NCBI GenBank assembly: GCA_965248265.1 | Contig: CBDFJF010000002.1 | Span: forward strand, 416,001 to 480,000 | Length of the DNA: 64,000 nt | Reading direction: 5' to 3' | Source: Candidatus Latescibacterota bacterium | GTDB lineage: Bacteria; Latescibacterota; UBA2968; UBA8231 | Program-made: the position numbers and the translations under genes | Notes under the pieces: generated by a model | Database searches by the model: none | What the model was told of the DNA's origin: nothing | The model's input: the letters and a program-made list of their open reading frames with translations, nothing else | Shown: piece after piece, positions 47,586-64,000 of the stretch | Position numbering within the stretch: position 1 is the stretch's first letter | Layout: each line of letters opens with the position of its first letter

Positions 47586-47822
47586 CTACCTTGAGGATGT
47601 CGCCTCGCTATCCACGGAGCGCTTTCCCTGTTGCGATAGTAATCCAGAATAACAGCCCAGGCGGGTCGGACGCACAAGTCGAGTTGGCCGTGGTGCCATG
47701 GGACACGCCCGAGCTGGCTGCGGCGCCGCTCGATCGACACCTGTTACCAGCACGGGACATCACTGTGTGCACGAAGACTCCCTTGCGCGTGGGGAATAAG
47801 CACCTGCGCACTGTCGCGGATG

Positions 47823-47839
47823 CTGGCATGAGCCTTGCA
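47823..47839 (+). promoter_or_regulatory. sigma54 (-24/-12) promoter
   Basis: CTGGCATGAGCCTTGCA: GG-N10-GC, about 60 bp upstream of the AAGGAG RBS and ATG at 47902. Confidence 0.7.
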
Positions 47840-47901
47840 AATCACGGACCCGGACCACTTGGTAAACCCACAGCGCCCCCGTACATTGCAAGGAGTAGAT
47901 T

Positions 47902-48480
47902 ATGTCCGAGCCTCCCGAGTCTACAGCCTCACAACCGCAACCTGAAGACATGCACTGGGCCGTATCATACCTGCGCGAGGATCTGCAGGACATCCGCAAC
48001 GAGACACGCGGACTCCACGAGCGGATTGACGACGCGCGCACCGCGGCCACTGGCGAAAGCCGTGATCTCCAAAAGCGAATCGACGACACAAGCGCGGCGG
48101 CGGCCAGCGAACGCCGTGATCTTCGTAAGCGAATCGACGAGTTAGGCGCCGAGGCCGTCCGTGAGCGCGGCGAACTGCGAAAGCGAATTGACGAGGTGAG
48201 CGCGGAGGCGTCCAACGAGCGCGGCGAGCTCCGAAAGCGAATTGACCAGGTAGGCGCCGAGGCATCCAACGAGCGCGGCGAGCTTCGCAAACGAATCGAC
48301 CAGGTAGGCGTCGAGGCATCCAACGAACGCGGCGAGCTTCGCAAACGAATCGACGACACGAACTCTTCGATGAATGCTCGGTTCGAGGCTCTTTCTACGC
48401 GTCTGGATACCCATTTCCGCTGGACCATGATGGCGATGATCAGCATAGGCGGCCTTCTGGCTGCCATGATCAAGCTGTAA
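47902..48480 (+). CDS. Membrane-anchored coiled-coil repeat protein (DUF1640/CCDC90-like architecture)
   Basis: Seven 18-aa repeats (NERGELRKRIDQVGAEAS type) and one C-terminal TM helix; AAGGAG RBS. Confidence 0.8.
   Translation: MSEPPESTASQPQPEDMHWAVSYLREDLQDIRNETRGLHERIDDARTAATGESRDLQKRIDDTSAAAASERRDLRKRIDELGAEAVRERGELRKRIDEVSAEASNERGELRKRIDQVGAEASNERGELRKRIDQVGVEASNERGELRKRIDDTNSSMNARFEALSTRLDTHFRWTMMAMISIGGLLAAMIKL
47998..48375 (+). repeat. 54-bp tandem repeat, about 7 units
   Basis: Recurrent AACGAGCGCGGCGAGCTTCGCAAACGAATCGAC-like unit; later copies are most alike. Confidence 0.9.
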
Positions 48481-48521
48481 GGAAATTCCCCAGGGATCAT
48501 CGAGCAGCCTGGCCCGGCTAC

Positions 48522-51500
48522 TCACTTCAGCAACAACAGCTTCCTCGTCGCAACATGTCCGTCACTTCTGAGGCGATACAGATATACTCCGGAAGCGACT
48601 GGCCGGCCTTCGTCGTCGCGACCGTCCCAGCGAACGGTGTGGCTACCAGCCTCCAGGATCGATTTGTGCAACATGCGAATTCTCTGGCCGGCCAGGTTGT
48701 AGACTGCAAGCGAGCCCTGGGCGCGAACTGGGATGGAGAAGCTCACGACCGTGCCGCTGTTGAAGGGATTCGGAAAATTCTGGTGAAGCTCGAAATCGTG
48801 GGGTACGGCTGTTGGCTCCTGTGTCACGGCAGTCTCCCTCCCATCCAGCCGGTACACACCCCACGACGTGGCGACGAACAGCGCGTCCGGATCCGCTGGA
48901 CTGACAGCGACATCGTTGAACCACGGATAACCCGCTATACCTGTCCCGATTGAATTCCAGCTCTCACCCCCATCGCGCGTTTCCAGCAATTCTCTCGGAG
49001 TTACAACGAAGAGCCGGTTGCTGTCGTGCGGATCGAAGCGGATGCGTACCGGATGGGGGATGCGTACCGCCGGGTCCTCTACCATTTCGATGAAGACCCA
49101 TTGCTGGCCAGCCTCGTGCATGAGCTTCCAGTCCTCGCCGTTATCGACGGAGTTGTAAACCCCTTCTGATGTAGCAGCCCACAGCCGCGTGGTGCCGGGT
49201 TGCGCCTCCAGCGTCAATAGATCGCCCTGTCCCGCCTCACCGGCGAGCACCCAATTCAGACCCTGGTCCGCACTGCGATAGATCCGGTTTTCGATCGCGG
49301 CATACAGCCTGCCGCCATCTCGCGTATCGAGTGCTAGTCCGGTCACTGATCCTTCTTCCGGGAGCGACCGCTCTTCCCATGATTCCCCGCCATCGTCACT
49401 GCGCAGGATAGTACCTGGCCGAGCAGAATAGAACACCCCTCGCTGCGTCGGATCGGCGATGATCGTCGGGGAAGCCGAGGCCTTCGAGGTCCCTTCTATC
49501 CACGTCGCACCGTCGTCCTCACTGACCAGGAGGTTGCCCTGCGCCAGACCGAGCAAGCGGCCACGATTGAAGAGATCGAGCTTCAGACTGGTGAACTTCC
49601 ATGACAGGTTGGACTTCCACATCCATGTGGCTCCAGCGTCCGAACTCACATAGATCGCGGCCTTTTCCTCTACATTTTCCAGCACCCCTGCGTACAGACG
49701 GCCGTCGGCATCGAACACAATCGTGCTTGCCGGTGCACCGGCGGGGTCTTCAAGCTGTGGATGGCTCCAGGTGCGGAAGGCATCACGTGAGTGCGGGATT
49801 GATAGCGTCCACCCTGTTGGGTACCCTCCACAACACTGCATCACGATCATGACGTGCTCGGGGTCATGCGGATCAATCACCATGTCCTCGATGTGGCCAT
49901 AATAGTCTAGCGATTCTGACCACCGCCGCTCTGATTGCTTCCAGGTCTCCCCACCGTCGCTGGACCGAGCGAAGTGGGACCAGGTATTGTGATCGTACAG
50001 AACAAACGGGCTGTAGCGAGGCGCTCGAACTTGGAAAATTCCCTGTCGTCGAGCCGGTTGGTTGGTCTTGCCAATGGACTGCCAGCTGCGTGCGTTGTCG
50101 GGGGATTCCCAGAGTTGCTTCGACTCATAATCGATAGCGAGGAGGCAGTCGGGACATCTAGGATCAGCTTCGATCGACCACCACCGCCCCGGCGGCTCGC
50201 CGCCTTCAATCCAGTTCATACCGCCATCAGCACTGCCGAACACGCGACCGTCATCGACAACGGCGTAGATCCAGTGGGGCTCCAATGGATGCACGAGTAC
50301 GGCCTGCCACTGCTCCAGCAATCCGGAGTCCCGCCAAGAATCACCGGCGTCGTCTGAAATCCACAACCTCTGGTCCCTCTGCGCGTACAGCCGGCTCCCT
50401 CTTGCTGGATCTACCGCCAAAAGGGCCACGTCCATTCCAGTTCCCGGAATTGAAATCGATTCCCAGGTCAGCCCTCCATCGCGACTGCGCAGCGGATGAA
50501 CGGTGATGTATACGGTGCTGGGATCGACGGCGTCTACGACAACCCCGTGCAGGGGAAGAGGCGACCACGGCGACACATAGAATATATCCTCCATGGACCT
50601 CTGTAACATGACGCCCATCGGATCCCAGGAGTCACCGCCATCGATGCTGCGCCACAAGGCTGTTTGGGTCGTCGCGTAGACGACACCCGGTGAGCTCGGC
50701 GAGAACGCGATGCCCGTGTTCGCCGACACCCAGTGATCCGACGGGGGGCCGACAAAGCGCCAGGAACCCGTGTTGTGAGGCGCCGGTCTCGACACCGGCG
50801 TGAAATTCAAAACCTGAAAGACACCGATCCCCTCGTTGCCGAACTCGTCCTCTGCCTGTGACTGGAGTAGATACAACCCATCGGGGATGTCGGACCATAT
50901 CGCTTCAAATCGACTCTCCATCCAATGCAAGGGAATACGGGCTATCTCGGTCGTATCTCGATACGCATAAGCAACGGCGTTTACCGAGCTGATCTCACTG
51001 CTTTCCTGGATATCAGCCATGGACATGCTCAGTAGTAGGCCATCTCCTGCCCTCTCGATTGCCAGCCTGGCCACTCGCGGCGCTGTCTCGTCTCCACCCT
51101 CGGCCACTTCCACGTATACCGTGTCTCTCCTGAGACTGACGCTTCCAGTTCTGACCAACAGCTCGAATCCGAGCATGTCTCCAGCCTCCACCCCGGACTG
51201 AATCATGAAATCGGAAGAGCGGATACGAGCCGTCGTCGCGCTCGCTTCGACACTCCCGCGAGCGCTCCCCAGTGCTACAGCGTCGGGATGCAGTGAGCGA
51301 AGGTCGAACGTCAGCGCGGCAAGCGCGTCCGGTGCCTTCACATCCAGGAGGAGTTCGAGATGAATAATCTCACCGGTCTGAGCTTTGCCATCCCCATCGG
51401 AAACACTGTCCACGATCCCCACTTCACGAATGGCCAGCCCCGGCGAGACTCCAGTGAGCATTACCTCTTGGACCCCCACCAGCTCCTCACCGACGTAGAC

Positions 51501-53213
51501 CTCGAGTGAGAGAGAGGCGGTGTGGGTACCGGCAAAGGCGTCTCTCAGACGGAGTGCAAGCCAATCGCCATCTGCCGTACGAGCACTAGCCCTCTGCCCA
51601 ATGTCCAAATCCCTCACGGTCACCTCTCTGCGCACTATCTCTACCAGAGGGTCCTGACTGCTCACCACCACCTTGATTCCTCTGGCTACAATGCCGCCAT
51701 CGTTCCGCAAGTCGAACAGCACTTCGACCGGTTCTCCCGCCATGACGATGCCGTCGCCGCTTGCGTCCACCAGGCGCACCCTTTCGTCGAACGTCAGGAT
51801 TACTGGCAAGTCTACCTGGGCGACGAGTTGGCCTTCATCGACATGGATATCGGAGATTTCGATACTTCGGTTTCCATCCGTGTCGAAAGATGCCGGATTC
51901 GTGTACGGTGTGAGGGCGACATACTCGACCCCGTCGAAGGGATCGGTTGCGTCCCCCCGGTTGCCGCCGTGGGTGGCGCTATAGGCTGCATCGTGCGCCC
52001 AGAAATCGAGATTGTCCTCGCCGCCATGCGGGTCTGGCACGTGGCCGAGCGGAAATCCCGCATCCGACCACCGACCATCAGCGCATTCCAGGTCAACCGA
52101 AGGTCCGTGGATATGCCAAATGAGCAGCCCTTCGGCCGGGATGCGACGGTCGTAGTAGCTGTGTCGCCGCGTGCGGTATTCCAGCAGGAAATACTCTTTC
52201 CGCCACGGCGTTACCGGCACCTTGTGCACGGCGGCAGCCGCGGCTCCTACTGGCCTCATGCGGACGGTCTGTAGCGCCTGGGATGGTTCGCTCACGTGTA
52301 TCCACCCCAGCATCATGCGGCTCCACGCCGAGAAACTGTTGGGACCATCATCGCCGTTCCAGCCATCGGCGCCCCAACCCATCAAGCCCCAGTTGCCGAT
52401 GCCGGCTGAATCGTGCTCGGGTCCCAGCGGCTCCTCGCTCCGCACAAATTTCGTGTTGTAGAGGTCGGGCAGCCCGAGAACGTGCCCGTACTCGTGTGCC
52501 ATCGACCCCACCAGGACGGCATACGAGGCCCCGGCTTGAATCGTCCCTTGTGCGGAACTTATCGCTACCGGAGTTCCCGCAGCGCCCGGGTCGTTCATCA
52601 TCAACTGACCACCCGAGTCTTCCTCAAATACTCCGAGACTGGCGATCCCCGTCGCTGATCCGCGCAGGAAGTTCGCTGGCGCCGACATCATCCCGATGAA
52701 GACGACATCCGCGACACCATCGTCGTCCCCTGAATCAGGGACTCCGTCGGGGCCCTCGTTGTCAAACTGCGAGAAGTCGATATCCTCATCAGCCTTGCGG
52801 AGGATTTCCCGGGAAAACTCGCCGAAGCGGCCGGGCTCAGTAGGGCTGTCAGACAGATAAAACTCCCGATCGCGATCCGATTCGTACCAGCGCGGAATCA
52901 CCTCGCCGTGCACCTGATGGCGACCCAGCGACATCTCGTTGTAGAAGTGGGTGAAGCTGCCAGGGTGGTTGGGGTCAAAGATCCCGTCAGCCCAGTCGGG
53001 CACCTGGCCGCCCACGGGTGCCTCGCCTTTGAAGGTGGCGAAGATCAACACCGCATTGCGGGTCTCCGTCTGTGTGGACTGGGTCGCCTTCGCGGCAATC
53101 GCATGTTGGGTCCACTGCGGCTCGTTAAGGCCGGCACAAACGAAGCTATCGGCTCGTGACTGTGATTGCAGCGTAGAGGCCAGCAGCAGACCGAGAATGG
53201 TGCGCCGGATCAT
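48522..53213 (-). CDS. Secreted M6 (immune inhibitor A-like) metalloprotease with Ig-like domains, BNR/VPS10-type propellers and a FlgD-Ig tail
   Basis: Signal peptide; HEYGHVLGLPDLY and WGLMG; many S.DGG.SW Asp-boxes; QNFPNPFN..WDGRD..ASGVYLY..KLLLLK; ATG at 53213. Confidence 0.88.
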   Translation of the reverse strand: MIRRTILGLLLASTLQSQSRADSFVCAGLNEPQWTQHAIAAKATQSTQTETRNAVLIFATFKGEAPVGGQVPDWADGIFDPNHPGSFTHFYNEMSLGRHQVHGEVIPRWYESDRDREFYLSDSPTEPGRFGEFSREILRKADEDIDFSQFDNEGPDGVPDSGDDDGVADVVFIGMMSAPANFLRGSATGIASLGVFEEDSGGQLMMNDPGAAGTPVAISSAQGTIQAGASYAVLVGSMAHEYGHVLGLPDLYNTKFVRSEEPLGPEHDSAGIGNWGLMGWGADGWNGDDGPNSFSAWSRMMLGWIHVSEPSQALQTVRMRPVGAAAAAVHKVPVTPWRKEYFLLEYRTRRHSYYDRRIPAEGLLIWHIHGPSVDLECADGRWSDAGFPLGHVPDPHGGEDNLDFWAHDAAYSATHGGNRGDATDPFDGVEYVALTPYTNPASFDTDGNRSIEISDIHVDEGQLVAQVDLPVILTFDERVRLVDASGDGIVMAGEPVEVLFDLRNDGGIVARGIKVVVSSQDPLVEIVRREVTVRDLDIGQRASARTADGDWLALRLRDAFAGTHTASLSLEVYVGEELVGVQEVMLTGVSPGLAIREVGIVDSVSDGDGKAQTGEIIHLELLLDVKAPDALAALTFDLRSLHPDAVALGSARGSVEASATTARIRSSDFMIQSGVEAGDMLGFELLVRTGSVSLRRDTVYVEVAEGGDETAPRVARLAIERAGDGLLLSMSMADIQESSEISSVNAVAYAYRDTTEIARIPLHWMESRFEAIWSDIPDGLYLLQSQAEDEFGNEGIGVFQVLNFTPVSRPAPHNTGSWRFVGPPSDHWVSANTGIAFSPSSPGVVYATTQTALWRSIDGGDSWDPMGVMLQRSMEDIFYVSPWSPLPLHGVVVDAVDPSTVYITVHPLRSRDGGLTWESISIPGTGMDVALLAVDPARGSRLYAQRDQRLWISDDAGDSWRDSGLLEQWQAVLVHPLEPHWIYAVVDDGRVFGSADGGMNWIEGGEPPGRWWSIEADPRCPDCLLAIDYESKQLWESPDNARSWQSIGKTNQPARRQGIFQVRAPRYSPFVLYDHNTWSHFARSSDGGETWKQSERRWSESLDYYGHIEDMVIDPHDPEHVMIVMQCCGGYPTGWTLSIPHSRDAFRTWSHPQLEDPAGAPASTIVFDADGRLYAGVLENVEEKAAIYVSSDAGATWMWKSNLSWKFTSLKLDLFNRGRLLGLAQGNLLVSEDDGATWIEGTSKASASPTIIADPTQRGVFYSARPGTILRSDDGGESWEERSLPEEGSVTGLALDTRDGGRLYAAIENRIYRSADQGLNWVLAGEAGQGDLLTLEAQPGTTRLWAATSEGVYNSVDNGEDWKLMHEAGQQWVFIEMVEDPAVRIPHPVRIRFDPHDSNRLFVVTPRELLETRDGGESWNSIGTGIAGYPWFNDVAVSPADPDALFVATSWGVYRLDGRETAVTQEPTAVPHDFELHQNFPNPFNSGTVVSFSIPVRAQGSLAVYNLAGQRIRMLHKSILEAGSHTVRWDGRDDEGRPVASGVYLYRLRSDGHVATRKLLLLK

Positions 53214-53274
53214 TTCGCTAAGTCCTCGTCCTCGGGGACGACGCTGCCGAGAGCCCTCCGGCACATTCCTCAGA

Positions 53275-54720
53275 CTACCGTACGAGCGACAGCTTTCGAC
53301 TCTCGGTGTAGTCCCCCGCGCGGAGCCGGTACATGTAAGTACCCGATGCCAGATCCTGTCCTGTCGCGTCGCGACCGTCCCAGCGGAGCGAATACATGCC
53401 GGCTTTACGGTGACCGTCGATGAGTGTCACGACCTTTTGCCCCGCCAGGTTGTAAATGGCTATGTCTACCCGGCTATCGAGGGGCAGGTCAAAGTGGATG
53501 GAGGTTTCGGCGTTGAAGGGGTTGGGGTAGTTCTGGGACAGGTTGAAGGACTGCGGCAGCGACTCATCGCGCACCTCTACCACGGTCGCGATAGCCGGAG
53601 TTACCCTACGAATTCGATGATTCCCAGCGTCGGCGATGAAGAGATTGCCCGCCGCATCGACGAACACGCCACCAGGACCAACCAACTCGGCCTCGGTGGC
53701 CGGGCCGCCGTCGCCGGAAAACCCCGCTGTGCCCGTGCCGGCCACGGTGGAGATGGTACCGGCCGGATCCACCTTGCGAACGCGATGATTGTCAGCGTCG
53801 CCGATGAAGAGATTGCCCGCCCCATCGACGAACACGCCAACAGGATCGTTCAACTGGGCCTCGGTGGCCAAGCGGCCATCGCCGGAAAACCCCGCTGTGC
53901 CCGTACCGGCCACGGTGGAGATGGTACCGGCCGGATCCACCTTGCGAATGCGATTATTGTTAGCGTCGGCGATGAAGAGATTGCCCGCCCCATCGACGAA
54001 CACGTCAATAGGAACGTTCAACTGGGCCTCGGTCGCCGGCCCGCCGTCGCCGGAAAACCCCCGTGTGCCCGTGCCGGCCACGGTGGAGATGGTACCGGCC
54101 GGATCCACCTTCCGAACTCGATGATTCCCACGGTCGGCAATGAAGAGATTGCCCGCGGCATCGACGAACACGTCCCACGGAAGGTCCAACTGGGCCGCGG
54201 TGGCCGGGCCGCCATCGCCGGAAAACCCTTCTGTGCCCGTGCCGGCCACGGTGGAAATGGTGCCGGCCGGGTCCACCTTACGAACGCGATCATTATCAAG
54301 ATCGGCAATGAAGAGATTGCCCGTCGCATCCACGAACACGCCAATAGGATGGTCCAACCCGGCCTCCGTGGCGGGGCCGCCGTCGCCTAACCCCTCGGTG
54401 CCTCCCCCGGCCACAATGGAGATGGTGCCGCTCGTGTCCACCCTTCGAACGAGCTGATCGTTGTAGCCGCCAATGAAGAGATTTCCCGCGGCATCGACGA
54501 ATACGTCACGAGGAGTATACAACTGGGCCTCGGTGGCCGGGCCGCCGTTGCCGGAAGACCCCGCTCTACCCGTGCCGGCCACGGTGGAGATGGTCTGTGC
54601 GAAGGCCGGTGTGCACAGGCCGAAGGTGACCGTCAGCAGAAAGGCGAGCCGGACGGCAAGGCCGGAAAAGAGCACGACACTGCAGGTGGTTCTGCGCACT
54701 GAGTGTATGCAGATGGTCAT
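53275..54720 (-). CDS. Secreted six-bladed NHL beta-propeller with a FlgD-Ig tail
   Basis: Signal peptide ending AFA-Q; six TISTVAGTG..GDGGPAT.AQL..P..VFVD.AGNLFIAD..N.RVRKV repeats; NYPNPFN tail. Confidence 0.9.
   Translation of the reverse strand: MTICIHSVRRTTCSVVLFSGLAVRLAFLLTVTFGLCTPAFAQTISTVAGTGRAGSSGNGGPATEAQLYTPRDVFVDAAGNLFIGGYNDQLVRRVDTSGTISIVAGGGTEGLGDGGPATEAGLDHPIGVFVDATGNLFIADLDNDRVRKVDPAGTISTVAGTGTEGFSGDGGPATAAQLDLPWDVFVDAAGNLFIADRGNHRVRKVDPAGTISTVAGTGTRGFSGDGGPATEAQLNVPIDVFVDGAGNLFIADANNNRIRKVDPAGTISTVAGTGTAGFSGDGRLATEAQLNDPVGVFVDGAGNLFIGDADNHRVRKVDPAGTISTVAGTGTAGFSGDGGPATEAELVGPGGVFVDAAGNLFIADAGNHRIRRVTPAIATVVEVRDESLPQSFNLSQNYPNPFNAETSIHFDLPLDSRVDIAIYNLAGQKVVTLIDGHRKAGMYSLRWDGRDATGQDLASGTYMYRLRAGDYTESRKLSLVR
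53600..54595 (-). repeat. About 168-bp tandem repeat (NHL blades), 6 units
   Basis: Near-identical DNA units such as GCCGGCCACGGTGGAGATGGTACCGGCCGGATCCACCTT and GATGAAGAGATTGCCC. Confidence 0.9.
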
Positions 54721-54768
54721 TGTCTTCTCTCCTTTGAACGAACAGCATGTTGGTGGAAAGCGCGCTTG

Positions 54769-56709
54769 CTACGGCGCGAACTTCTGAATCCGCTTGTTGC
54801 CGACGTCGGCTACGTAGATGAAGCCCTCGTCGTCGACAATGAGACTGCCAGAGAAGTCCTCTGGTCGATCGCCATCACGAAAATCGAACTGGCCATCGTC
54901 TGTGCCCCCATTGCCCCAATGCGTGATGTAGTTCCCTTCAGAGTCGAATGCCTGGATGCGTCTGTTGCCCGCGTCGAGGACGAAGATCCGGCCATCGCTG
55001 GCCACGTCGAACGACAGAGGATAGGAGAAGGCGCCCGGCTCCTGGCCCGGTGTTCCAACCGCGGTCGCCGTGCTTCCGGGGCCGAAGGGCCAGTTGATAT
55101 GCCCCTCCGAGAGCCCCGTGGGTGCGTAGAAAACCTGATGCTGATCTGGTACACAGATACCGATCTGCGGCTCCGAATCGGTTCCCCAGAGGCGCATTTC
55201 GCTGATTGGAAGGTCCAGAGCCATTGATTGGCCCGATGGCCGACTGACGCTATCCCCCCAGGCAAAGGCCCAGCTTTCCGCGAGAGAAATCAAGCTCATC
55301 GGACCAACCGCTGTGTCTGTTGTGACAGGCGTGTATTCAGAGGGCCAGGAGGAAGGAGACACGATTCCAGCCTGGACGAAGCCCTCGTCAATCTCAGCAT
55401 GCAGACGATAGGTAAGGCCAGTTGCAGCTGCGAAGGGTGATTCGAAATCTCGGGACTCCAAGCCGGAATCCGGCGGTGGGAGAATTGTCAGGGTCTTAGA
55501 GAAATCTCCCGTCTTAGATGAATTCTTAATTGCATCGAACTCTAGGTTGAATCCGAATGAAGTATGCGACGACATGGTCTGATGAAGCCGAAAAAAACTC
55601 TGCCCGGCCAGCGCGGTGTCGGCTTTCACGGCGATGTTAGCTGTAGGCCAGACCGACGAACCCGCAACGACGTCGGCTTCCAATCGTATATCGTGCCAGG
55701 ACGCTGTGACTTTTCTCCTGATCCACACGTTACCCGTAAGGCGCAACGCGCCACCTTCAACTTCGGCTTCACCCTCGATCACTTCCCATTCATGATCGGG
55801 CCCATCGAATTCATCGTCGATAAGAAGGCGATCATTCGAAGTAAACCGCACGTTGTCGAGAAAGGCGAGGTCGTGGACATGAAGGAGAATCTGACCTTCG
55901 ACCTCTGCTGCAGAGGGACCGAAGGATTCGAAGTTGTGCTCCAGCGGATGATCACGCAGCAGGGGCGCACCGTCCGCATCATAGGCCAGCACGTGTGGAA
56001 TCTGAAAACTTCTGCTAGCGTCGCTAGCGCTCTCCAAAGACAGACCCACAAGTCGCGTGCCGTCGGGAAGGATAGTGAGAGCGACAGTTTGCGGCGGTAT
56101 AGCCAGAGAAGGATTATCCAGCAACACCTGCTCTTCAATCGGATCTCCACCTGAGGCGAACGAGAGGAGCCGGACGCGGTTTTCTCCAGATATCAAGGCA
56201 AGGACGTCGTCGCCTTCCTTGTAGAGCCGGACGTATTCACCCTCCTCCATTTCGAGGGGCCAGCTGTGAAGGAGTCCATGAAGAGTTCCAGTCTTCGCAA
56301 GACCGGGAACGAGCTCATCTGCGTCGGTCACCACGACGACGTGGTAGGAGTACTCCTTGTTACCCGCCAGTCCGGTATCCACGAAGGAGGTATCGCTCCT
56401 GTCCTCGACCATGGCGGCCACCAGGGTATCGGATCCAGTTGTCCGCAGTAGGCGATAGGACGAGAAGTTCGGGTCGACGTATTGAGTCCAGGTGACCGTC
56501 GCCGATGCCGTTGCCGAGTCGAACGTCAGGTCACGAATCCCGAAGCCGTCCTCGAGTTCGCCCGGCGGAGTCAGCTCGGGCTCAAGCGGGTTGTTCCCCT
56601 TGTTGTCATCCCCGCATGCAACCAGAAGAAGAAGAAGCCCTGCCGGCAGCAGGCCAAAGCAAGAGAACGTGCCACACAGCCGGATAAAACAGTGAATAGT
56701 TGCGTTCAT
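54769..56709 (-). CDS. Lipoprotein: one Fn3-like domain, a propeller with inserted beta-sandwich, and NHL C-terminus
   Basis: LLVAC lipobox, NPLEPELTPP, Fn3 (W..Y..YR...Y.Y) and VLDAGNRRIQ/YVADVGNKRIQKF; GGAGAG RBS; ATG at 56709. Confidence 0.82.
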   Translation of the reverse strand: MNATIHCFIRLCGTFSCFGLLPAGLLLLLVACGDDNKGNNPLEPELTPPGELEDGFGIRDLTFDSATASATVTWTQYVDPNFSSYRLLRTTGSDTLVAAMVEDRSDTSFVDTGLAGNKEYSYHVVVVTDADELVPGLAKTGTLHGLLHSWPLEMEEGEYVRLYKEGDDVLALISGENRVRLLSFASGGDPIEEQVLLDNPSLAIPPQTVALTILPDGTRLVGLSLESASDASRSFQIPHVLAYDADGAPLLRDHPLEHNFESFGPSAAEVEGQILLHVHDLAFLDNVRFTSNDRLLIDDEFDGPDHEWEVIEGEAEVEGGALRLTGNVWIRRKVTASWHDIRLEADVVAGSSVWPTANIAVKADTALAGQSFFRLHQTMSSHTSFGFNLEFDAIKNSSKTGDFSKTLTILPPPDSGLESRDFESPFAAATGLTYRLHAEIDEGFVQAGIVSPSSWPSEYTPVTTDTAVGPMSLISLAESWAFAWGDSVSRPSGQSMALDLPISEMRLWGTDSEPQIGICVPDQHQVFYAPTGLSEGHINWPFGPGSTATAVGTPGQEPGAFSYPLSFDVASDGRIFVLDAGNRRIQAFDSEGNYITHWGNGGTDDGQFDFRDGDRPEDFSGSLIVDDEGFIYVADVGNKRIQKFAP

Positions 56710-56765
56710 GGTTGTCTCTCCTGTCTTTGTGTCCAATCCGCTATGGCGTACCCACAAAGACATAT

Positions 56766-56782
56766 CGCAAGCGGCGTGCCAG
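56766..56782 (-). promoter_or_regulatory. sigma54 (-24/-12) promoter
   Basis: The minus strand reads CTGGCACGCCGCTTGCG, a perfect TGGCACG-N4-TTGC. Confidence 0.85.
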
Positions 56783-56861
56783 CGCGGCGGATTCAGGCCT
56801 AAGCTGTTTGGTTATATGGGATTACGGAAAAGAAGTGGAGTCGGACAGACTCTACAACGGC

Positions 56862-56936
56862 GTCCAGTTTTCTGGAAAAATGGCCAGCAGAGTCCAGTTT
56901 TCTGGAAAAATGGCTGCTGAGTCCAGGATTCTGGAC
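56862..56936. promoter_or_regulatory. Three palindromic upstream activator (enhancer) sites
   Basis: TCCAG-N4-CTGGA at 56863, 56893 and 56922 (30 and 29 bp apart); the first two lie in an exact 23-bp direct repeat. Confidence 0.7.
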
Positions 56937-56994
56937 AGATGAGAACTCAGATGTGCGACACAACACCCATGATGTCGCGTATTCGATTGGGGTG

Positions 56995-59172
56995 CTACGG
57001 CGCGAATTTCTGAATTCGCTCGTTGCCGACGTCGGCTACGTAGATGAAGCCTTCGTCGTCAACGACGATGCTGCCGGAGAAATCCTCGGGCCGAAGGCCG
57101 CCACGAAAATCGAACTGGCCATCGTCTGTGCCCTCGTTGCCCCAATGCGTGATGTAGTTCCCTTCAGAGTCGAATGCCTGAATGCGTCTGTTGCCGGCGT
57201 CGAGGACGAACATCCGACCATCGATGCCCACGTCGAATGACAGAGGATAAAAGAAGCCGCCTGGCTCCTGGCCCGGCTCCTGGCCCCTAGTTCCGACGGC
57301 GATCGGGTCGTCGGAGGGGTCGAAAAGCCACCAGATAGAGCCGTTTGACAGGCGGGCCGGAGCGAAGAAAACCTGGTGCTGATCCGGTACACAGATACCG
57401 ATCCGCGGCTCTGAATCGGTTTCCCAGACGCGCATCTCACTGACTGGGAGGTCCAGGGCAAGGGTTCGGCCCGGTGGCCGACTGAGGCTATCGCCCATGG
57501 CAAAGGCCCAGCTTTCCTCGAAAGAAACCAAGCTCATCGAACCAATCACTCTGTCCGTGGCCCTGTTTTCAGAGGGCCACAAGGAAGGAGACGCAATCCC
57601 AGCCTGGATAAGGCCCTCGTCGATCACAGCATGCAGATGATAGGTAAGGCCAGTAGCAGCTGCGAAGGGTGAGTCGAATGGTTGTGGCTCCAAGCCGGAA
57701 TCCAGCGGTGGGAGAATCGTTAGGGTCTTGGACCGCAAATCACGCGTTGCTTCGAACCGCAGGTTGAGTCCGAATGAGGTATGCGACGTCATGGTCTGAT
57801 GAAGCCGATGATTACTCTGACCGGCCAGCGCGGTGTCGGCTTTCACAGTGATGCTGGCTATAACCCAGTCCGACGAATCCGTGACGACGTCGGCTTGCAA
57901 TCGTATATCGTGCCAGGACGCTGTGACTTTTCTCCTGATCCCCACGTGACCTGTCAAGCGCAACGCACCACCTTCAACTTCGGCTTCACCCGTGATCACT
58001 TCCCATTCATGATCGGGCCCATCGAATTCATCGTCGATAAGAAGGCGATCATTCGAAGTAAGTCGCACGTTGTCGAGAAAGGCGAGGTCGTGGGTATGAA
58101 GGAGAATCTGACCTTCGACCTCTGCTGCAGAGGAACCGAAGGATTCGACGCCGTGCTCCAGCGGATAATCACTCAGCAACGGCAAACCGTCCGCATCATA
58201 GGCCAACAGCTGTGGAAGCCGAAAACTTTTGCTAGAGCTGGTAAAGCTCTCCAAAGACAAGCCCACAAGCCGCGTGCCGTCGGGAAGGATGGTGAGAGCG
58301 ACAGTATGCGGCGGTATGTCCAGCGCAGGATTCTCCAGCAACACCTGCTCTTCAATCAAGAGTCCACCTGAGGAGAACGAGAGAAGCCGGACGCGGTTTT
58401 CTCCAGATATCAATGCAATAATGTCGTCGCCTTCCTTGTAGAGCCGCACGTATTCGCCGTCCTCCATGTCGAGGGGCCACGTATCCAGGTGCTCGTGGAA
58501 AACCCCACTGCGCTCCTCACTCTCGATCTCTTCATTCGCCGTAGTCAGTAAGACGACCCGGTATCGGTGCCTGGCGTTGCCGGTCAGTTCTTCATCCACC
58601 CAGGACGTAGTGGAAATGTCGTCGATCTCTTCGATTAGTTGAGGTGGCGCGTCACCGGTCCGTCGCACGATTCGATATGACCGAAAGCGAGAGCCGGTAT
58701 AGCGGGTCCAGCTGAGCGTGGCGGTTGCCGTTCTCGAATCGAATCGAACCTCCTCAATTTCGACCGCAGCAAGGTCGAGGAGCCGGACCGACTGAGGTTG
58801 CGACGGAACTTCGAGTCCCGCTGAGTTGATCACGGAAACTCGATACGAGTAGGTGGAGCCGGTCACGAGCGTCGAATCGACGAAGCTCGTCTCGTCGACA
58901 TCAGAAAAGATCTTGAGCGTGTCGATGACCTCTGGCATCTCCCCAATACGAATTACCAAATAGCCTGCAAACGGAACTTTGCCGTCATACGGCGTCCAGG
59001 TGAGGGTGGCGGTGCCGACCGAGTCGTCGAGGGCGACCTGTAGCTCCACAGGCGGGGTCAGCTCAGGATCGAGGGGGTTCGTCCGCTTGGTGTCGTGGCT
59101 ACAGGCAAGCAGAAGAAGAGGGACGAGTCCTGCGAGAGGCCAGGAGGATTTGGTGGGATTGGACGTGTCCAT
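56995..59172 (-). CDS. Lipoprotein paralog with two Fn3-like domains, propeller/beta-sandwich and NHL C-terminus
   Basis: LLLAC lipobox and NPLDPELTPP; the C-terminal ~500 aa are colinear with 54769-56709. Confidence 0.82.
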   Translation of the reverse strand: MDTSNPTKSSWPLAGLVPLLLLACSHDTKRTNPLDPELTPPVELQVALDDSVGTATLTWTPYDGKVPFAGYLVIRIGEMPEVIDTLKIFSDVDETSFVDSTLVTGSTYSYRVSVINSAGLEVPSQPQSVRLLDLAAVEIEEVRFDSRTATATLSWTRYTGSRFRSYRIVRRTGDAPPQLIEEIDDISTTSWVDEELTGNARHRYRVVLLTTANEEIESEERSGVFHEHLDTWPLDMEDGEYVRLYKEGDDIIALISGENRVRLLSFSSGGLLIEEQVLLENPALDIPPHTVALTILPDGTRLVGLSLESFTSSSKSFRLPQLLAYDADGLPLLSDYPLEHGVESFGSSAAEVEGQILLHTHDLAFLDNVRLTSNDRLLIDDEFDGPDHEWEVITGEAEVEGGALRLTGHVGIRRKVTASWHDIRLQADVVTDSSDWVIASITVKADTALAGQSNHRLHQTMTSHTSFGLNLRFEATRDLRSKTLTILPPLDSGLEPQPFDSPFAAATGLTYHLHAVIDEGLIQAGIASPSLWPSENRATDRVIGSMSLVSFEESWAFAMGDSLSRPPGRTLALDLPVSEMRVWETDSEPRIGICVPDQHQVFFAPARLSNGSIWWLFDPSDDPIAVGTRGQEPGQEPGGFFYPLSFDVGIDGRMFVLDAGNRRIQAFDSEGNYITHWGNEGTDDGQFDFRGGLRPEDFSGSIVVDDEGFIYVADVGNERIQKFAP

Positions 59173-59203
59173 GCAGCAGCACTCCGGTCGTCGAGACCAC
59201 TTT

Positions 59204-62125
59204 TCAGCGCACAGTCAAGGGCTCAGCTATACTTTCCACGAGATCGAGCAAATCGCGGACTCCTCTACCGCGAGGACTGGCTTCGAGCAGGTCCGTCAGC
59301 CGCCCGAGCGAGGTCAGCAGAGCCTGGTCGGCCGCAACGGTGCGCAATGACTCGTCGAGCTGGCGGCTGGTGGCCGCGTGGGCGGACAGATCCACGACGC
59401 TCGACAGTGGCACGCGCAGGGATCGGGCGGCCAGACCGCCGATTCTCAGGGTTTGGAGCCATTTTCCCATGTAGAAGAAGAGAGCAGCTTCCTCGCCGTG
59501 GCCCTGGACGAGTTGGGCCAGGGTCTGGTTTGCCTCGTTAAGGTTGGCGGCGAGTTCCGGCGTGGATTCAGTACCGGGCCGCAGATGCTGGGGCAAGTTT
59601 TCGACAGCCCTGCGCTGTGCCGGGCTTGGGTCGAAGTGGCTCAGCAGCTCGCTCAGGCGTTGTGCCTGGATTTGTGCGCCCGTCAAGTCACGGCTGAATT
59701 GCTGCAGGACCTTCAGTTTGATCCACAGCACTCCAGCTGTAAAGGCTGTTTGAGTTTTCGAGGGTTTGGCGAAAATCCCGAACTCGGTGGCCACTTCCCG
59801 GGTCAGGTCAGCGGCCATCAGCGACCACTCGCGGCCCTGAGCCTGCAGGGTCGAGTCGACGATGGACAGTTGGGCCATGCCAGAACCCAAAAGCATCATC
59901 TTGCCATTGGCCTCATACTGGTCGGGGACTTCCAGACGATACAGATACATTCCACTGGCCACCGGCTGGTGGTTCCCATCCTGCCCGCTCCACACCACCT
60001 CCTGCCTTCCCTCTGATTGATGTTCGTCGACAAGGGTACGCACCATCTGGCCGAGGCTGTTGTAGATGACCAGGCGTACCGGCCCCGAGGTGGCCAGTGT
60101 GTAGGGAATGGTGGTGCTGTAGTCGAAGGGGTTGGGATAGTTCTGCATCAGTTCGAATGCGACTGACTCCAAGGCGGGCGCGTCAGTAACGGCTGTAGCC
60201 ACCTGGGAGGCAAGGTAGTCCTCGTGGGTTAGAAAACCATGCTTGGTATCGCGGAGTACAAACCTCTCCTCCATAGGCTCGCGCAGGCCTGGGTCCGTAC
60301 TGCTGATGCGGATACCGTACCAGGTATCCCCGGGCACCAGGGCTTCAAACACGATGGGTGGAGGTACTATTTTTTCCAATTTTTTTGTTTCTTTGTTAAA
60401 ACGGGACGTCCGTTTCTGCCTTTCGATGCTCAGGTCGCCCTGGATGTCTATCTCGCAAAGCGCAGGATCCAGCCCGCCTCGGAGTCGATCGGTGCCGGCA
60501 AAGCGCACCCGAGTATGTTTGCTCACAAACAGCTTGCCTTCTGGTGCAATGGTCAGATCCCCATCCACAATGATCTCTCCGCCCCAGCTCACTTCGCCGC
60601 GAATGGTACCCGCCCAGTGAGTCGGTTTGATATCCACGACCATGTGAGGGCCCTGGCGGCGAATGTTCTCAAGGGCAAATCCTGTGTTTGCTTCGGCGTA
60701 CTGCCTCCACTGAACTGTTGCGGGATTCGATTGGCGATCCAGGCGCGTAAAGCGGTCGCCATCAAAGGGGTCCGTGGCATCGCCGAGGTTTCCGCCACGA
60801 GCGTCGCGGTAAGCGACATCGTGCGCCCAAAAATCGAGGTTGTCGCGCCCTTCGTGTGGATCAGCCACACCACCGAGCGGGTGACCCGCGTCGCTGTAGA
60901 GCCCGTCGGCACAGACCAGGTTGACTCGCTTGTTTTCCTCATGGTCGTTGGATGGGGTGAAGGTACGCACATGCCATGCCAGTAATCCCTCGGCCGGCAA
61001 GTTGCGATTATAGTAATGGGAGGTGCGGAGTCGCTGCTCCAGCAGGAGGTATTCAGGGACGGACGAGGTTAGCAATTCGATGTATTGCGTGTGCAGCGGA
61101 ATCCTGTAAATGAAGCCCTGCTGATACAGGTCCGAAATAACCAGTCCGGTTGTGTCACTGGACACCTCTATCAACCGCTCGTTGTTCAATCCAATCCAGC
61201 CCAGCTGTTCCAGACTCCATGGAGAGAAGGGGTTGGGGCCATCGTAGCCGTTCCAACCGGACGTGCCCTGTCCCATCAGCCCCCAGCGGCCAATGCCGGC
61301 GCTGTCTTCGGCCGGCGTGTCATAGCTTTTGTCGTAGAGGTCGGGCAGGCCCAGGGCATGTCCGAATTCGTGCGCCATGACCCCCGCCGTTTGGGCGAAC
61401 GAGCCTTCCTTCAGAATGGCGCCATGATACTGCTGGTAGCTGATGCGTGTGGGATTGCCACTGGCAGACACATCAGCCGATCGGTAATCGTCGATAAACC
61501 CCCCTAAATTGGCGATACCGGTTGCACCCTTTAAGAGGAAATCGCGGGGGGCAGAAAGCACGTTGACGAAGACGTAGTCAACCCGGCCGTCATCATCTCC
61601 GGAATCGGGTTCACCGTCCGGGCCGTCGTTGTCGAACGCCCGCAGATCGACATCCCGGTCCACTTTCCTCAGAATCTCCTGCACAAACTCGTTGTAGCGG
61701 CCGAACTCTCCCGACACTCGGGCACGATACGCTGAAGCCGGACGGTTCGAGGCATAGCGCTTGGGCACCACGGTGCCCTCAATCTGCAACTGGCCAAAGG
61801 ACATGGTGTCATAGAAGTGCGTGAAACTGCCCGGATGATCCCGGTCGAACAGCGCCTCTCCGTAGTCGGGGATCCGGTCATTGCCCGGGGCTTCGTCCTT
61901 GAACTTGGCGAAGATGACAAGGACGCCCACTTTGCCGCGAGAAGACACGACATCCGTCTGTGCTGCAAGCCCGAACTCCTCCTCAACCTGGAGCGGGGCC
62001 TCCTCAAAGATTATGTCCGGGGGTGCCGAGGGAGTTGTGCACCCCGTCGTGCAGAGGGTACCGAGCAGCAGCGCCAGGACGGCGCTGCAACGACCGTACT
62101 TCCACAGGAGACATAGATGGGTCAT
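59204..62125 (-). CDS. Secreted M6 metalloprotease with an internal FlgD-Ig domain and an extra helical C-terminal domain
   Basis: HEFGHALGLPDLY and WGLMG; QNYPNPFD..ASGMYLY..KMMLL followed by about 225 more residues; possible lipoprotein Cys (TTGC). Confidence 0.85.
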   Translation of the reverse strand: MTHLCLLWKYGRCSAVLALLLGTLCTTGCTTPSAPPDIIFEEAPLQVEEEFGLAAQTDVVSSRGKVGVLVIFAKFKDEAPGNDRIPDYGEALFDRDHPGSFTHFYDTMSFGQLQIEGTVVPKRYASNRPASAYRARVSGEFGRYNEFVQEILRKVDRDVDLRAFDNDGPDGEPDSGDDDGRVDYVFVNVLSAPRDFLLKGATGIANLGGFIDDYRSADVSASGNPTRISYQQYHGAILKEGSFAQTAGVMAHEFGHALGLPDLYDKSYDTPAEDSAGIGRWGLMGQGTSGWNGYDGPNPFSPWSLEQLGWIGLNNERLIEVSSDTTGLVISDLYQQGFIYRIPLHTQYIELLTSSVPEYLLLEQRLRTSHYYNRNLPAEGLLAWHVRTFTPSNDHEENKRVNLVCADGLYSDAGHPLGGVADPHEGRDNLDFWAHDVAYRDARGGNLGDATDPFDGDRFTRLDRQSNPATVQWRQYAEANTGFALENIRRQGPHMVVDIKPTHWAGTIRGEVSWGGEIIVDGDLTIAPEGKLFVSKHTRVRFAGTDRLRGGLDPALCEIDIQGDLSIERQKRTSRFNKETKKLEKIVPPPIVFEALVPGDTWYGIRISSTDPGLREPMEERFVLRDTKHGFLTHEDYLASQVATAVTDAPALESVAFELMQNYPNPFDYSTTIPYTLATSGPVRLVIYNSLGQMVRTLVDEHQSEGRQEVVWSGQDGNHQPVASGMYLYRLEVPDQYEANGKMMLLGSGMAQLSIVDSTLQAQGREWSLMAADLTREVATEFGIFAKPSKTQTAFTAGVLWIKLKVLQQFSRDLTGAQIQAQRLSELLSHFDPSPAQRRAVENLPQHLRPGTESTPELAANLNEANQTLAQLVQGHGEEAALFFYMGKWLQTLRIGGLAARSLRVPLSSVVDLSAHAATSRQLDESLRTVAADQALLTSLGRLTDLLEASPRGRGVRDLLDLVESIAEPLTVR

Positions 62126-62151
62126 AGGAAGCTCCTTATGGTGTATTGCCG

Positions 62152-63813
62152 TTACTCGTCCACGGCGTATGTCATCCAGCCCATCACTCTACCTGAAGCG
62201 GCCGTGAGAAAGATGACCCTGGCCGGTTCGTAGATGTGGTAGATCGATCGCGATCCCGATACGTGGCCGGTAGGTGAGCCATAGGCCTCCAGCACGTCCT
62301 CCAACTGTTGACCGATGCTCAGGCCACGGGCGCTGCGGCTGGTGTATCCGTTTTCGGTCTCCAGGAAGGTTATCGTGCTGTACCCGGTATCGATGGCGAG
62401 TGAGGACCATGTCTCGGCACGCTTCACGAAAATGTCGATGGCTGGTTGGCTGCGATTGAGCTTGGGCAGGGATGTCCTGGCATCGGGATCATCCATGATG
62501 GAGCTGGCTTCCGCGGCGCTCAATTCTCCTATGGTCTCCGGAGTGGCGAGCCGCACACGGACGCTCGCTGAATCCGCTGCGGCAGGGGCTGACGATGAGA
62601 GGGCGGCTAAGTTCAGGCTGGCCAGCAGCTGGTTGCCGTCCTGCGCCGCGCTGAAATCACGGAGGGCGCACTCCTCATCGGCCGGATCCCCGTGGGCGCA
62701 GGCAATGCCGCGGGCGATCAGCGCATTCGACAGGGATACCGGCTGATCGTCACGACGACCCGCCGACTTGACCGCTTTGCTGGCGAAGAACAGGGCCTCG
62801 TCGTGATCGCCCTGCATGTCAGCGACACACGCCGTATTGGTATAGGCCGCCGTGTACTGTGGATCTCTACTTCGAGCCTGGTCGAAGAAACCGGCAGCCT
62901 CGCTCAGCAGCTCGGATCGGTGGTCGATGCGCTCGTCTATCGAGCCGTAGGCTGCTTTGCGACCGCCCCGCAGACGCGTCGTCGGATCGAGCTCCAGGGG
63001 ATAGGCGAAACGGAGCTCTCCCGTTTCGAACAGTGCCATAGCCTGAAGGGCTCTGGCGACGCCTGCATTGTTGAGGATCTCGCGGCTGGGAAAGTCGCGG
63101 GCGATGTGGTCGAAACAGCGGGACGCCTCCTCGTATTTCGATATGAGCAGGAGCCGGTTGCCTGCCTCGAAGACCGGAACGAGTTTGTGCAGTCTCCGCA
63201 ACGAGCGGTGAGCGATCTCCTGTCGCTCTGAAAGGGCTGGATAACCCGGCAGGTCGTCACTCAACTCGTACTCGAGGTACACCGCTTCCAGGATGCTCGC
63301 GGCGACGCCCAGCGTGTTGTAGCCGGCGACGTATCCGCAAAACCCGCCGAAGTAGTCTGCCTCAGTCTCAATTTTCTCCATGCTGGCCACGCTGCTCCGG
63401 AGTCCGGCAATCGACTGTCCCACCGCCAGGTCGGCAAACCCATTGCCGAAGTCGCCGGGCCAGGCGTGGTCCTTGTAGTAGTGCGCCAGTTCGTGTCCGA
63501 GCAGGGCAGCCAGGGCATTGAGCGAATCGGGCCCGAGAGATACACACAGATCGTAAAGCCGCTCCTCCACTGTCAGGGTATTGCGCCCGGCGCTGTACCA
63601 GGCCGCCTTCATTCGACTGGATACACCGCGAGGCTGTACGTATAGCCTAGGTGCCGTGCGGCCATCGCCGATCGCACGGACCAAGTCATCGTAGACGCGC
63701 TTGGCGGTCCTGTACTTGGGATGGCTTCTGGGCAGGTGATCGGAAGCTGCGGTCACGGCGTCCGAACCGGATAGCAGCACGAGCAGAGGTATGAAGAGCG
63801 CCAGGGTTTTCAC
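62152..63813 (-). CDS. Secreted M48-like zinc peptidase with TPR repeats
   Basis: Signal peptide; LGHELAHYY, ETEADYFG and YPALSER; TPR-like EILNNAGVA and AAYTNTACV. Confidence 0.78.
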   Translation of the reverse strand: MKTLALFIPLLVLLSGSDAVTAASDHLPRSHPKYRTAKRVYDDLVRAIGDGRTAPRLYVQPRGVSSRMKAAWYSAGRNTLTVEERLYDLCVSLGPDSLNALAALLGHELAHYYKDHAWPGDFGNGFADLAVGQSIAGLRSSVASMEKIETEADYFGGFCGYVAGYNTLGVAASILEAVYLEYELSDDLPGYPALSERQEIAHRSLRRLHKLVPVFEAGNRLLLISKYEEASRCFDHIARDFPSREILNNAGVARALQAMALFETGELRFAYPLELDPTTRLRGGRKAAYGSIDERIDHRSELLSEAAGFFDQARSRDPQYTAAYTNTACVADMQGDHDEALFFASKAVKSAGRRDDQPVSLSNALIARGIACAHGDPADEECALRDFSAAQDGNQLLASLNLAALSSSAPAAADSASVRVRLATPETIGELSAAEASSIMDDPDARTSLPKLNRSQPAIDIFVKRAETWSSLAIDTGYSTITFLETENGYTSRSARGLSIGQQLEDVLEAYGSPTGHVSGSRSIYHIYEPARVIFLTAASGRVMGWMTYAVDE

Positions 63814-63830
63814 GGTGCCGATGATTTCCG

Positions 63831-64000
63831 TTATCGAGCCCAGTAGAAGTCGCGCTCGTCGAGCACCGCCGCGTCGCTTTTCAACTCGTCTGCACCCGAG
63901 CTCTCGCTCACTGCGCCTTCGGCGCGCTCTGCTCTGCCCATTGCCACCATGGCGCGATCGAGGTTGCGCTGGAACCCGCGGCTTTGCGGCTCGAGGTCCG
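63831..64000 (-). CDS. C-terminus of an upstream gene, possibly TPR-containing (partial)
   Basis: Open frame DLEPQSRGFQRNLDRAM...ERDFYWAR-TAA ends 18 bp before the next start. Confidence 0.55.
   Translation of the reverse strand, partial: DLEPQSRGFQRNLDRAMVAMGRAERAEGAVSESSGADELKSDAAVLDERDFYWAR

Follow-up and report, generated by a model that had tools for sequence, protein, structure and literature searches.

In NtrC-family systems, sigma-54 promoters of the -24/-12 type are accompanied by palindromes ~100-160 nt upstream, and the activators join Sigma54_activat, AAA lid and HTH_8 domains to an N-terminal receiver, GAF or PAS module. Escherichia coli BepA (YfgC) is an M48 metalloprotease of the periplasm, bears a TPR domain at its C-terminus and takes part in the quality control of outer-membrane proteins; M48 proteases carry an HExxH motif and a downstream glutamate in an ExxAD-type motif, and the zinc site of M6 proteases, which include immune inhibitor A (InhA), reads HExxHxxGxxD. 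Cargo of the type A kind exported by the type IX secretion system (T9SS) of Bacteroidota and allied phyla ends in a TIGR04183 sorting domain. The nSTAND2 nucleoside triphosphatases (NTPases) were originally defined within predicted counter-invader systems; as that study describes them, these comprise two adjacent genes, one with eroded NTP-binding motifs and fused to a GT4 or HEPN effector, and the paired proteins are proposed to form hetero-multimers (Kaur et al. 2021, PMC8195603). Here we analyse a gene cluster with likenesses to each of these systems, located in a 64,000-nt stretch of DNA (the window, G000:C2:416001-480000) from a Candidatus Latescibacterota bacterium, assembly GCA_965248265.1 (genome G000; 7.3 Mb in two contigs, C1 and C2). 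We tentatively read the region, at just short of an even chance, as a two-promoter, sigma-54-dependent cluster of extracytoplasmic proteins that belongs to a wider regulon, with its nSTAND2-bearing activator encoded elsewhere in the genome.

From position 48522 to the window end, seven long open reading frames (ORFs) run head to tail on the minus strand, the first of them continuing past the window; coordinates above 64000 are window-equivalent positions beyond its end. In order of transcription they encode a membrane nSTAND2 protein, an M48-like protein with TPR repeats (the M48/TPR protein), an M6 metalloprotease (M6B), a lipoprotein (LipoB), its paralog LipoA, an NHL propeller protein and a second M6 metalloprotease (M6A). 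The ORF list and profile scans agree with the seven co-oriented genes proposed in a sequence-only reading of the same DNA. That reading had also placed 47823-48521 in the operon; this segment holds a small opposite-strand repeat ORF instead.

Within each half of the cluster the genes overlap or are separated by at most 51 bp, and the two halves meet at a 288-bp gap between LipoB and LipoA that holds a promoter and a group of palindromes. The promoter, TGGCACGCCGCTTGC (TGGCAC-N5-TTGC, 56767-56781, minus strand), lies ~55 nt upstream of the second ATG of LipoA; its pattern has a single match in the window, and at least one match arose in 16 of 100 shuffles. Three TCCAG-N4-CTGGA palindromes span 56863-56935 (minus strand; as 16-mers, 56862-56877, 56892-56907 and 56921-56936), spaced 30 and 29 bp apart and situated 96-155 nt upstream of the internal -24 element. 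Shuffled sequences contained 0.15 such palindromes on average and none of 100 reached three, and the entire genome has 19 sites, three of them at this promoter. The consensus element and the shuffle tests on the palindromes confirm, as sequence features, the internal sigma-54 promoter with enhancers described from the letters alone. The longer LipoA ORF, from 56763, would start 4 nt past the promoter element, within the expected transcription-start region; the second ATG (56709) is preceded by a ribosome-binding-site-like GGAGAG.

The first gene has a sigma-54-type promoter of its own, TGGCATGCCTGTTGC, a TGGCAT variant at L001:4619-4633 on the minus strand (window-equivalent 66619-66633). The palindrome GTCCTGAATCCTGGAC stands 157 nt upstream of it (L001:4775-4790) and differs by one base from the internal GTCCAGAATCCTGGAC; the motif common to both promoters is GTCCnGAAnnCnGGAC. 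Because the first gene has its own promoter and a near-identical palindrome, the cluster consists of two sigma-54 units that share one enhancer motif. The genome encodes a single rpoN and 29 strong Sigma54_activat matches. Taken with the motif's occurrence at paralogous genes and in relatives, described below, these features make it very probable that the cluster genes are co-regulated by sigma-54, as had been supposed. A search of sequencing runs found four that contain this DNA, all from a single study and none recorded as RNA.

Genome-wide, GTCCnGAAnnCnGGAC has 29 matches, both strands counted, and eight of these, belonging to five promoters, are followed by a sigma-54-like site at a distance of 40-260 nt, against ~0.07 expected from a site-density estimate. 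Besides the two cluster promoters, the combination stands ahead of three further genes: one for a third lipoprotein paralog (C2:3922259), one for a T9SS-tailed protein of 528 aa (C1, ~198400) and one for a PEGA-domain protein. The esterase gene adjoining the third lipoprotein paralog has a sixth promoter, identified by eye. The PEGA-domain gene is directly downstream of a sigma-54 activator gene, C1:1375549-1377609, which we regard as the best activator candidate. Its 686-aa product combines an nSTAND2 domain (E 2.6e-38) with Sigma54_activat, AAA lid and HTH_8 domains, and the N-terminal nSTAND2 domain shares 47% identity with its counterpart in the cluster's first gene. It has the domain set of NtrC-family activators, whereas its N-terminal regulatory module is an nSTAND2 NTPase instead of a receiver, GAF or PAS domain. 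The sequence-only reading had suggested looking beyond the 64 kb for an NtrC-family activator; a scan of 14 ORFs from the 18 kb that follow the window detected no Sigma54_activat domain, and the nearest activators on the cluster's contig lie ~88 kb upstream and ~380 kb downstream.

Since the motif pattern was partly derived from G000 sites, its matches in relatives are the only independent test. Of 76 genomes of the family, seven encode a full-length activator, and GTCCnGAAnnCnGGAC lies directly downstream of the activator gene in G000 and in five of the six relatives (G021, G023, G019, G164 and G008); in the sixth, G006, a sigma-54 site is found there alone, with no motif. Lipoprotein homologs at six further loci (L044, L048, L049, L050, L055 and L066) likewise have the motif and/or sigma-54-like sites ahead of them. 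The sites of L044, L049 and L055 were identified by eye, and in L066 the motif is not accompanied by a -24/-12 element at the proper spacing. Six of the seven activator-bearing genomes also hold the M48/TPR protein, a co-occurrence that is suggestive only. On the basis of motif position and co-occurrence, we judge it somewhat likelier than an even chance that the nSTAND2 activator binds GTCCnGAAnnCnGGAC.

Fusions of nSTAND2 to a sigma-54 activator account for 37 of 90 relatives of the activator's N-terminus, all under generic source names, and a literature search of incomplete coverage retrieved no paper joining STAND NTPases with sigma-54 activators, although the nSTAND2 architecture source data of PMC8195603 may bear on this point. 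The nSTAND2 relatives as a group are fused to many outputs, including sigma-54 AAA+, DUF4384, SpoIIE, OmpR-type winged helix-turn-helix, protein kinase, CHAT, FliM/N and TPR domains, a variety typical of a general signalling input module. At the activator locus itself (G000:C1:1373338-1383846, L014:7338-17846), a separate TGGCAC-N5-TTGC site accompanies a divergent Fn3 lipoprotein-like gene, and the activator is followed by the PEGA/CarboxypepD_reg protein and two tandem nSTAND2 genes, one of 341 aa and one of 596 aa fused to a SpoIIE phosphatase; this gene set is largely repeated in G021, G006 and G008.

The first gene of the cluster (minus strand; window-equivalent 63831-66515, of which 63831..64000 is in the window; L001:1831-4515) encodes 894 residues. 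A profile scan identified PF20702 nSTAND2 at residues 37-297 (E 3.5e-38) together with TPR matches; hydropathy indicates one hydrophobic segment at 362-380, predicted to form one membrane helix, and a weak Transglut_core match falls at 604-641 (E 0.0058). The part visible in the window had been called a partial TPR-like gene: TPR repeats are indeed present, and the full gene is an nSTAND2 NTPase with a membrane helix and a transglutaminase-like/TPR domain. The Walker A (GxxxxGK[ST]) and Walker B motifs are intact in all six aligned nSTAND2 paralogs and orthologs. Compared with the two-gene counter-invader operons of PMC8195603, the NTPase family is the same, and the hetero-multimer idea would suit a genome with several nSTAND2 paralogs bearing different outputs. 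However, the cluster has a single nSTAND2 gene, with intact Walker motifs, in place of a pair of active and eroded genes; its partner domains are a membrane helix and a transglutaminase-like/TPR region and not GT4 or HEPN; and it stands in a sigma-54 operon with exported proteases.

The second gene (62152..63813, minus strand) encodes the 553-aa M48/TPR protein. Its PF01435 match, over ~25-35 residues around HExxH, reaches 18.0 bits where the cut-off is 20.3, and the TPR matches are weak; two orthologs (L037 and L038) attain 20.8 and 20.6 bits. The motifs HELAH and ETEAD (H107, E108 and H111; E149, E151 and D153) are invariant in eight of eight orthologs. In an AlphaFold2 model (pLDDT 77, with region 115-140 below 50), the top six Foldseek matches in the PDB are all E. 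coli BepA (6AIT/6SAR; E 1.3e-4 to 4.5e-4), at a TM-score of only 0.20-0.29 and a root-mean-square deviation of 15.6-18.6 Å; a PDB sequence search with the same protein returned TPR proteins and no BepA match. The resemblance to BepA comprises a signal peptide, HExxH, a downstream acidic ExEAD-type motif and then TPR repeats, whereas an additional C-terminal beta domain of ~120 aa sets the protein apart, as does the fusion of some orthologs to caspase and FGE-sulfatase domains. With E <= 1e-100 as the limit, eight of 76 genomes of the family encode it, and none of 92 genomes of other families does.

The fused orthologs, in L041 (G157:C163), L036 (G021:C5) and L042 (G164:C173), are ~1000-1100 aa long and end in a caspase (Peptidase_C14) and an FGE-sulfatase domain, with a PEGA domain between the two in G157 and G021, not in G164. 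They start with a signal sequence and would thus be exported caspase-like fusions.

M6B (59204..62125, minus strand, 973 aa) and M6A (48522..53264, minus strand, 1580 aa) both exceed the PF05547 cut-off of 22 bits, at 46.7 and 44.2 bits, respectively, and both retain the zinc-site motif (HEFGHALGLPD in M6B and HEYGHVLGLPD in M6A). The TIGR03296 M6 domain is missed narrowly (108.3 and 108.8 bits vs 110.8), and identity between the two M6 domains is 47% (203/429). M6B matches the InhA structure 4YU5 (E 5.3e-5) and, with a lipobox-like TTGC at its N-terminus read by eye, is a probable lipoprotein; M6A adds Sortilin-Vps10 (E 8.6e-27) and BNR propellers and a C-terminal T9SS domain. Likeness to the InhA family extends to the acidic loop of 4YU5, whereas only ~230 residues align, the downstream CADG...DNLDFW...DPF region is lineage-specific, and the proteins here carry C-terminal propellers or a beta-helix and T9SS tails or a lipobox. 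The genome has seven M6-like loci. Two supposedly unusual inserts shared by M6A and M6B occur genome-wide in six and four M6 paralogs, respectively, and the first aligns with a loop of Bacillus InhA 4YU5; being found in so many paralogs, they are family features and not special to this pair. The different C-terminal cargo noted on the M6 domains is real and reaches further, as the paralogs carry Sortilin/BNR, WD40 or beta-helix domains.

All six complete genes have apparent export signals, judged by eye and with a hydropathy script: the M48/TPR protein, the NHL propeller protein and M6A begin with stretches that resemble signal peptides, and the lipoproteins and M6B have lipobox-type N-termini. 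The earlier statement that every gene is exported fails for the first, which has no signal peptide and would have a cytoplasmic nSTAND2 domain and one membrane helix. Two of the products appear, by their terminal domains, to be T9SS cargo: M6A has TIGR04183 at 1497-1577 of 1580 (36.4 bits; cut-off 23), and the NHL propeller protein has it at 398-477 of 481 (40.4 bits; same cut-off). The genome encodes corresponding machinery, with three PorU and SprA above cut-off and a PorV-like gene (155.6 bits, below the cut-off of 250) adjoining a PorU gene. Our literature search, incomplete in coverage, found no paper on type IX secretion in Latescibacteria, no relevant paper pairing immune inhibitor A with type IX secretion and none on Latescibacterota peptidase secretion.

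LipoB (56995..59172, minus strand, 725 aa) has two Fn3 domains and an NHL-type beta-propeller region, supported by fn3 and NHL matches; LipoA (54769..56709, minus strand, 646 aa) has one Fn3, with NHL and weak fn3 matches, and the two share 71% identity (421/594). Their hydrophobic N-termini close in the lipoboxes LLAC and LVAC, respectively (by eye and hydropathy); the lipobox cysteine (Cys24 in LipoB) is invariant in five of five family members and near-invariant among 29, and an NPLDPxLTP motif is conserved in the family. The AlphaFold2 model of LipoB (pLDDT 84.3, pTM 0.80) is all-beta: a pair of Fn3 domains precedes a propeller region, which carries extra beta-strand segments and has two NHL blades at its end; its Foldseek matches are receptor ectodomains combining Fn3 and propellers, and NHL domains. 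The family is rare: a search of 5.8 billion proteins yielded 34 at E <= 1e-10, none informatively named, and G019 alone of 40 relatives encodes a full-length member. Between LipoA and M6A lies the gene for the 481-aa NHL propeller protein (53275..54720, minus strand), which has six repeats and matches TEN_NHL (teneurin-type; E 6.1e-40) and FlgD_ig.

These proteins had inspired the proposal that anchored variable binders (LipoA, LipoB and the NHL propeller protein) capture targets for paired M6 proteases, with the M48/TPR protein as activator, in two modules. Proximity within G000 speaks for it: LipoB and LipoA stand in tandem beside M6B and M6A, an M6 gene is no more than 5 kb away from three of the four full-length lipoprotein paralogs, and the M6 paralogs differ in their C-terminal domains. 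Two further cases are the third paralog, ~5 kb from an M6-WD40 protease (42% identical to M6A over 808 aa) with an IS3-type element between them, and a G157 lipoprotein fragment ~4 kb from an M6B-like gene. In contrast, no M6 gene adjoins the fourth G000 paralog, and no lipoprotein gene adjoins three other M6 paralogs. Since the lipoprotein half is not conserved with proteases elsewhere, the appearance of two functional modules is better seen as a local tandem duplication in G000.

The locus of the third paralog (G000:C2:3913774-3926485, L012:5774-18485) resembles a looser second copy of the cluster, with the M6-WD40 protease (1248 aa) and the lipoprotein on opposite strands. The interval contains the IS3-type element, a phosphotransferase gene and a pyridoxal phosphate enzyme gene; the esterase with its own motif and sigma-54-like promoter follows.

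Conservation across relatives divides the cluster. M6B and the M48/TPR protein are adjacent in five relatives (G008, G157 at two loci, G023, G021 and G011), and a TPR-module protein, sharing the C-terminal 490-residue transglutaminase-like/TPR part of the first gene, is in the same locus in G008, the first G157 locus, G023 and G011; in G019 it adjoins the M48/TPR protein, with no M6B. The second G157 locus has an nSTAND2 gene at its side, as does a second locus in G008, which also has the motif and a sigma-54 site. The expected conservation of the whole neighbourhood therefore holds for M6B, the M48/TPR protein and the TPR-module protein, and fails for the lipoprotein homologs, which stand without protease neighbours.

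Collectively, the cluster encodes an apparently exported set of two M6 metalloproteases with intact motifs, a putative BepA-like protease and three propeller-type proteins, together with a membrane STAND protein, under two sigma-54 promoters with one enhancer motif. The gene content, the sequences of promoters and enhancers, the paralogy and the patterns of conservation are direct observations, on which we base the following proposal. From the promoter at 66619-66633, unit 1 would produce the membrane nSTAND2 protein, the M48/TPR metalloprotease, M6B and LipoB; from the promoter at 56767-56781, unit 2 would produce LipoA, the NHL propeller protein and M6A, the last two exported by T9SS. The first-gene product would keep its nSTAND2 NTPase in the cytoplasm with the transglutaminase-like/TPR domain facing outward. 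GTCCnGAAnnCnGGAC would be the binding site of the activator C1:1375549-1377609, in which a paralogous nSTAND2 serves as the sensory domain, and the membrane protein may, at lower confidence, pass its signal to the activator by STAND-STAND association, of the kind that Kaur et al. 2021 proposed for paired nSTAND2 proteins. The output would be cell-surface and extracellular proteolysis, with the propeller proteins as binding parts. Scavenging of protein or glycoprotein is the likeliest use, a possibility to which we give slightly less credence than to the two-promoter reading as a whole. An extension of the proposal would amount to a new trans-envelope route to sigma-54: the membrane protein senses a cue from the envelope or the cell's surroundings, possibly a product of the neighbouring M48-like and M6 proteases, co-assembles through STAND domains with the soluble activator and switches on a regulon of T9SS cargo and surface lipoproteins that includes its own operon (positive feedback), with STAND hetero-oligomerisation replacing phosphotransfer. 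We consider this extension unlikely as it stands.

Several observations weigh against this reading. The activator lies on the other contig, was assigned by motif position and co-occurrence only, and has 28 other strong activator genes as competitors. The motif counts in G000 are partly circular, because the pattern was derived from the cluster's own sites and loosened after the PEGA sites had been seen; the overlap of activator and M48/TPR protein in six of seven genomes overstates the support, because related genomes do not count as independent cases. Among relatives, the partner with the TPR module has Reg_prop/Y_Y_Y domains in place of nSTAND2. Control of the core module is not fixed either, because the M6B orthologs of genus g13 (L039:1459-4557, L040:136-3237 and L041:4448-6889) open with an anti-sigma zf-HC2 domain (27.8 bits in L041) and a membrane helix, and each follows a gene of 326-336 aa with a weak sigma-70 region 4 match. 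None of five lipoprotein loci in other genomes (L020/L044, L045, L047, L050 and L052, two of which are shorter than 9 kb) has an M6, M48/TPR or STAND-TPR neighbour. M6B is probably not T9SS cargo, because its TIGR04183 match is internal (29.2 bits at 663-738 of 973, within an Ig-like domain at ~657-746); here M6B and its orthologs depart from T9SS type A cargo, as the domain is followed by a helical tail of ~230 aa that is conserved to its last residues in four of four aligned orthologs. Substrates and physiological role are guesses.

The g13 M6B orthologs would themselves be M6 proteases built as anti-sigma factors. A complex prediction of M48/TPR residues 24-553 with the M6B tail (745-973) gave scores of 0.50, 0.01 and 0.00 in separate runs and, with the controls not folded, speaks neither for nor against an interaction.

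Among the alternatives, the one that fares best, although we still hold it to be unlikely, is that the TPR-module protein, the M48/TPR protein and M6B form an envelope signalling or conflict module and do not serve feeding: a regulated-proteolysis cascade sensing and relaying an envelope or invader signal, in which the proteases cleave each other or the membrane regulator and the lipoproteins and T9SS cargo are downstream outputs. The origin of nSTAND2 in predicted counter-invader systems (PMC8195603) fits this idea, as do the caspase and FGE-sulfatase fusions of the M48/TPR orthologs in G157, G021 and G164, the anti-sigma zinc finger of the g13 M6B orthologs next to a sigma-70-region-4-like gene, the joining of the module to different sensors (nSTAND2 in G000, Reg_prop/Y_Y_Y elsewhere) and the many signalling outputs, such as SpoIIE, winged helix-turn-helix, kinase and CHAT, of the nSTAND2 relatives. 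However, the lone nSTAND2 gene with intact Walker motifs lacks the paired active and eroded genes and the GT4 or HEPN effectors of the conflict operons described there; the window revealed no known defence domain, no PADLOC scan having been made; the G000 M48/TPR protein has no caspase fusion; and M6 and M48 catalytic motifs alone do not reveal substrates.

A further alternative, improbable in our view, is that there is no system at all: independent genes for exported proteins would have come together by chance in a genome rich in T9SS cargo, and the internal promoter and palindromes would serve LipoA only. The genome does have at least 47 further T9SS-tail-like matches (51 of 119 candidates scored) and its seven M6-like loci, and the right half of the cluster is poorly conserved. 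Against chance stand the tight spacing or overlap of the genes inside each unit, the recurrence of one rare palindrome at both promoters and the M6B-M48/TPR adjacency kept in five relatives. Capture of targets by anchored binders for the paired proteases is the least likely of these alternatives, considering that none of the five lipoprotein loci in other genomes has a protease or STAND-TPR neighbour.

We thus retain the two-promoter sigma-54 cluster as the preferred reading. No description of such a system in print was found in the literature search, incomplete in coverage, which agrees with its earlier designation as undescribed. All its parts are of known kinds; new are the regulon and its motif, the trio of M6B, M48/TPR and TPR-module proteins with interchangeable sensors, and the nSTAND2-fused sigma-54 activator, whose architecture is the most novel part. 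For a phylum without a cultured model, this offers a concrete regulon, defined by an enhancer motif of 16 bp and comprising six candidate promoters and a single named activator, and it points to a class of sigma-54 activators with a STAND NTPase as sensory module. The conserved envelope trio appears wired to differing sensors by genome: nSTAND2, Reg_prop/Y_Y_Y or an anti-sigma zinc finger. Should the proteases serve nutrition, the cluster would be relevant to protein breakdown by these bacteria in their habitat; should they signal, it would represent a new regulated-proteolysis pathway.

Just downstream of M6A, a 192-aa ORF on the plus strand (47902-48480) has a hydrophobic C-terminal tail and contains a tandem repeat (48072-48356; 5.3 copies of a 54-bp, 18-aa unit) of the ERGELRKRID-type coiled coil. 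A 246-aa minus-strand ORF at 47760-48500 was rejected as a gene, being low-complexity and the reverse frame of the repeat ORF. The 192-aa product is weakly similar (E 1e-5, perhaps compositional) to a 171-aa tail-anchored coiled-coil ORF that adjoins the M6B-like operon of G157. The flanks of the cluster are metabolic-looking and apparently unrelated, with a DUF3604/CehA-type metallohydrolase and a DHDPS-family enzyme at 45320-47530 (minus strand) on one side and a creatininase and an M81/MlrC peptidase at L001:4826-7179 on the other.

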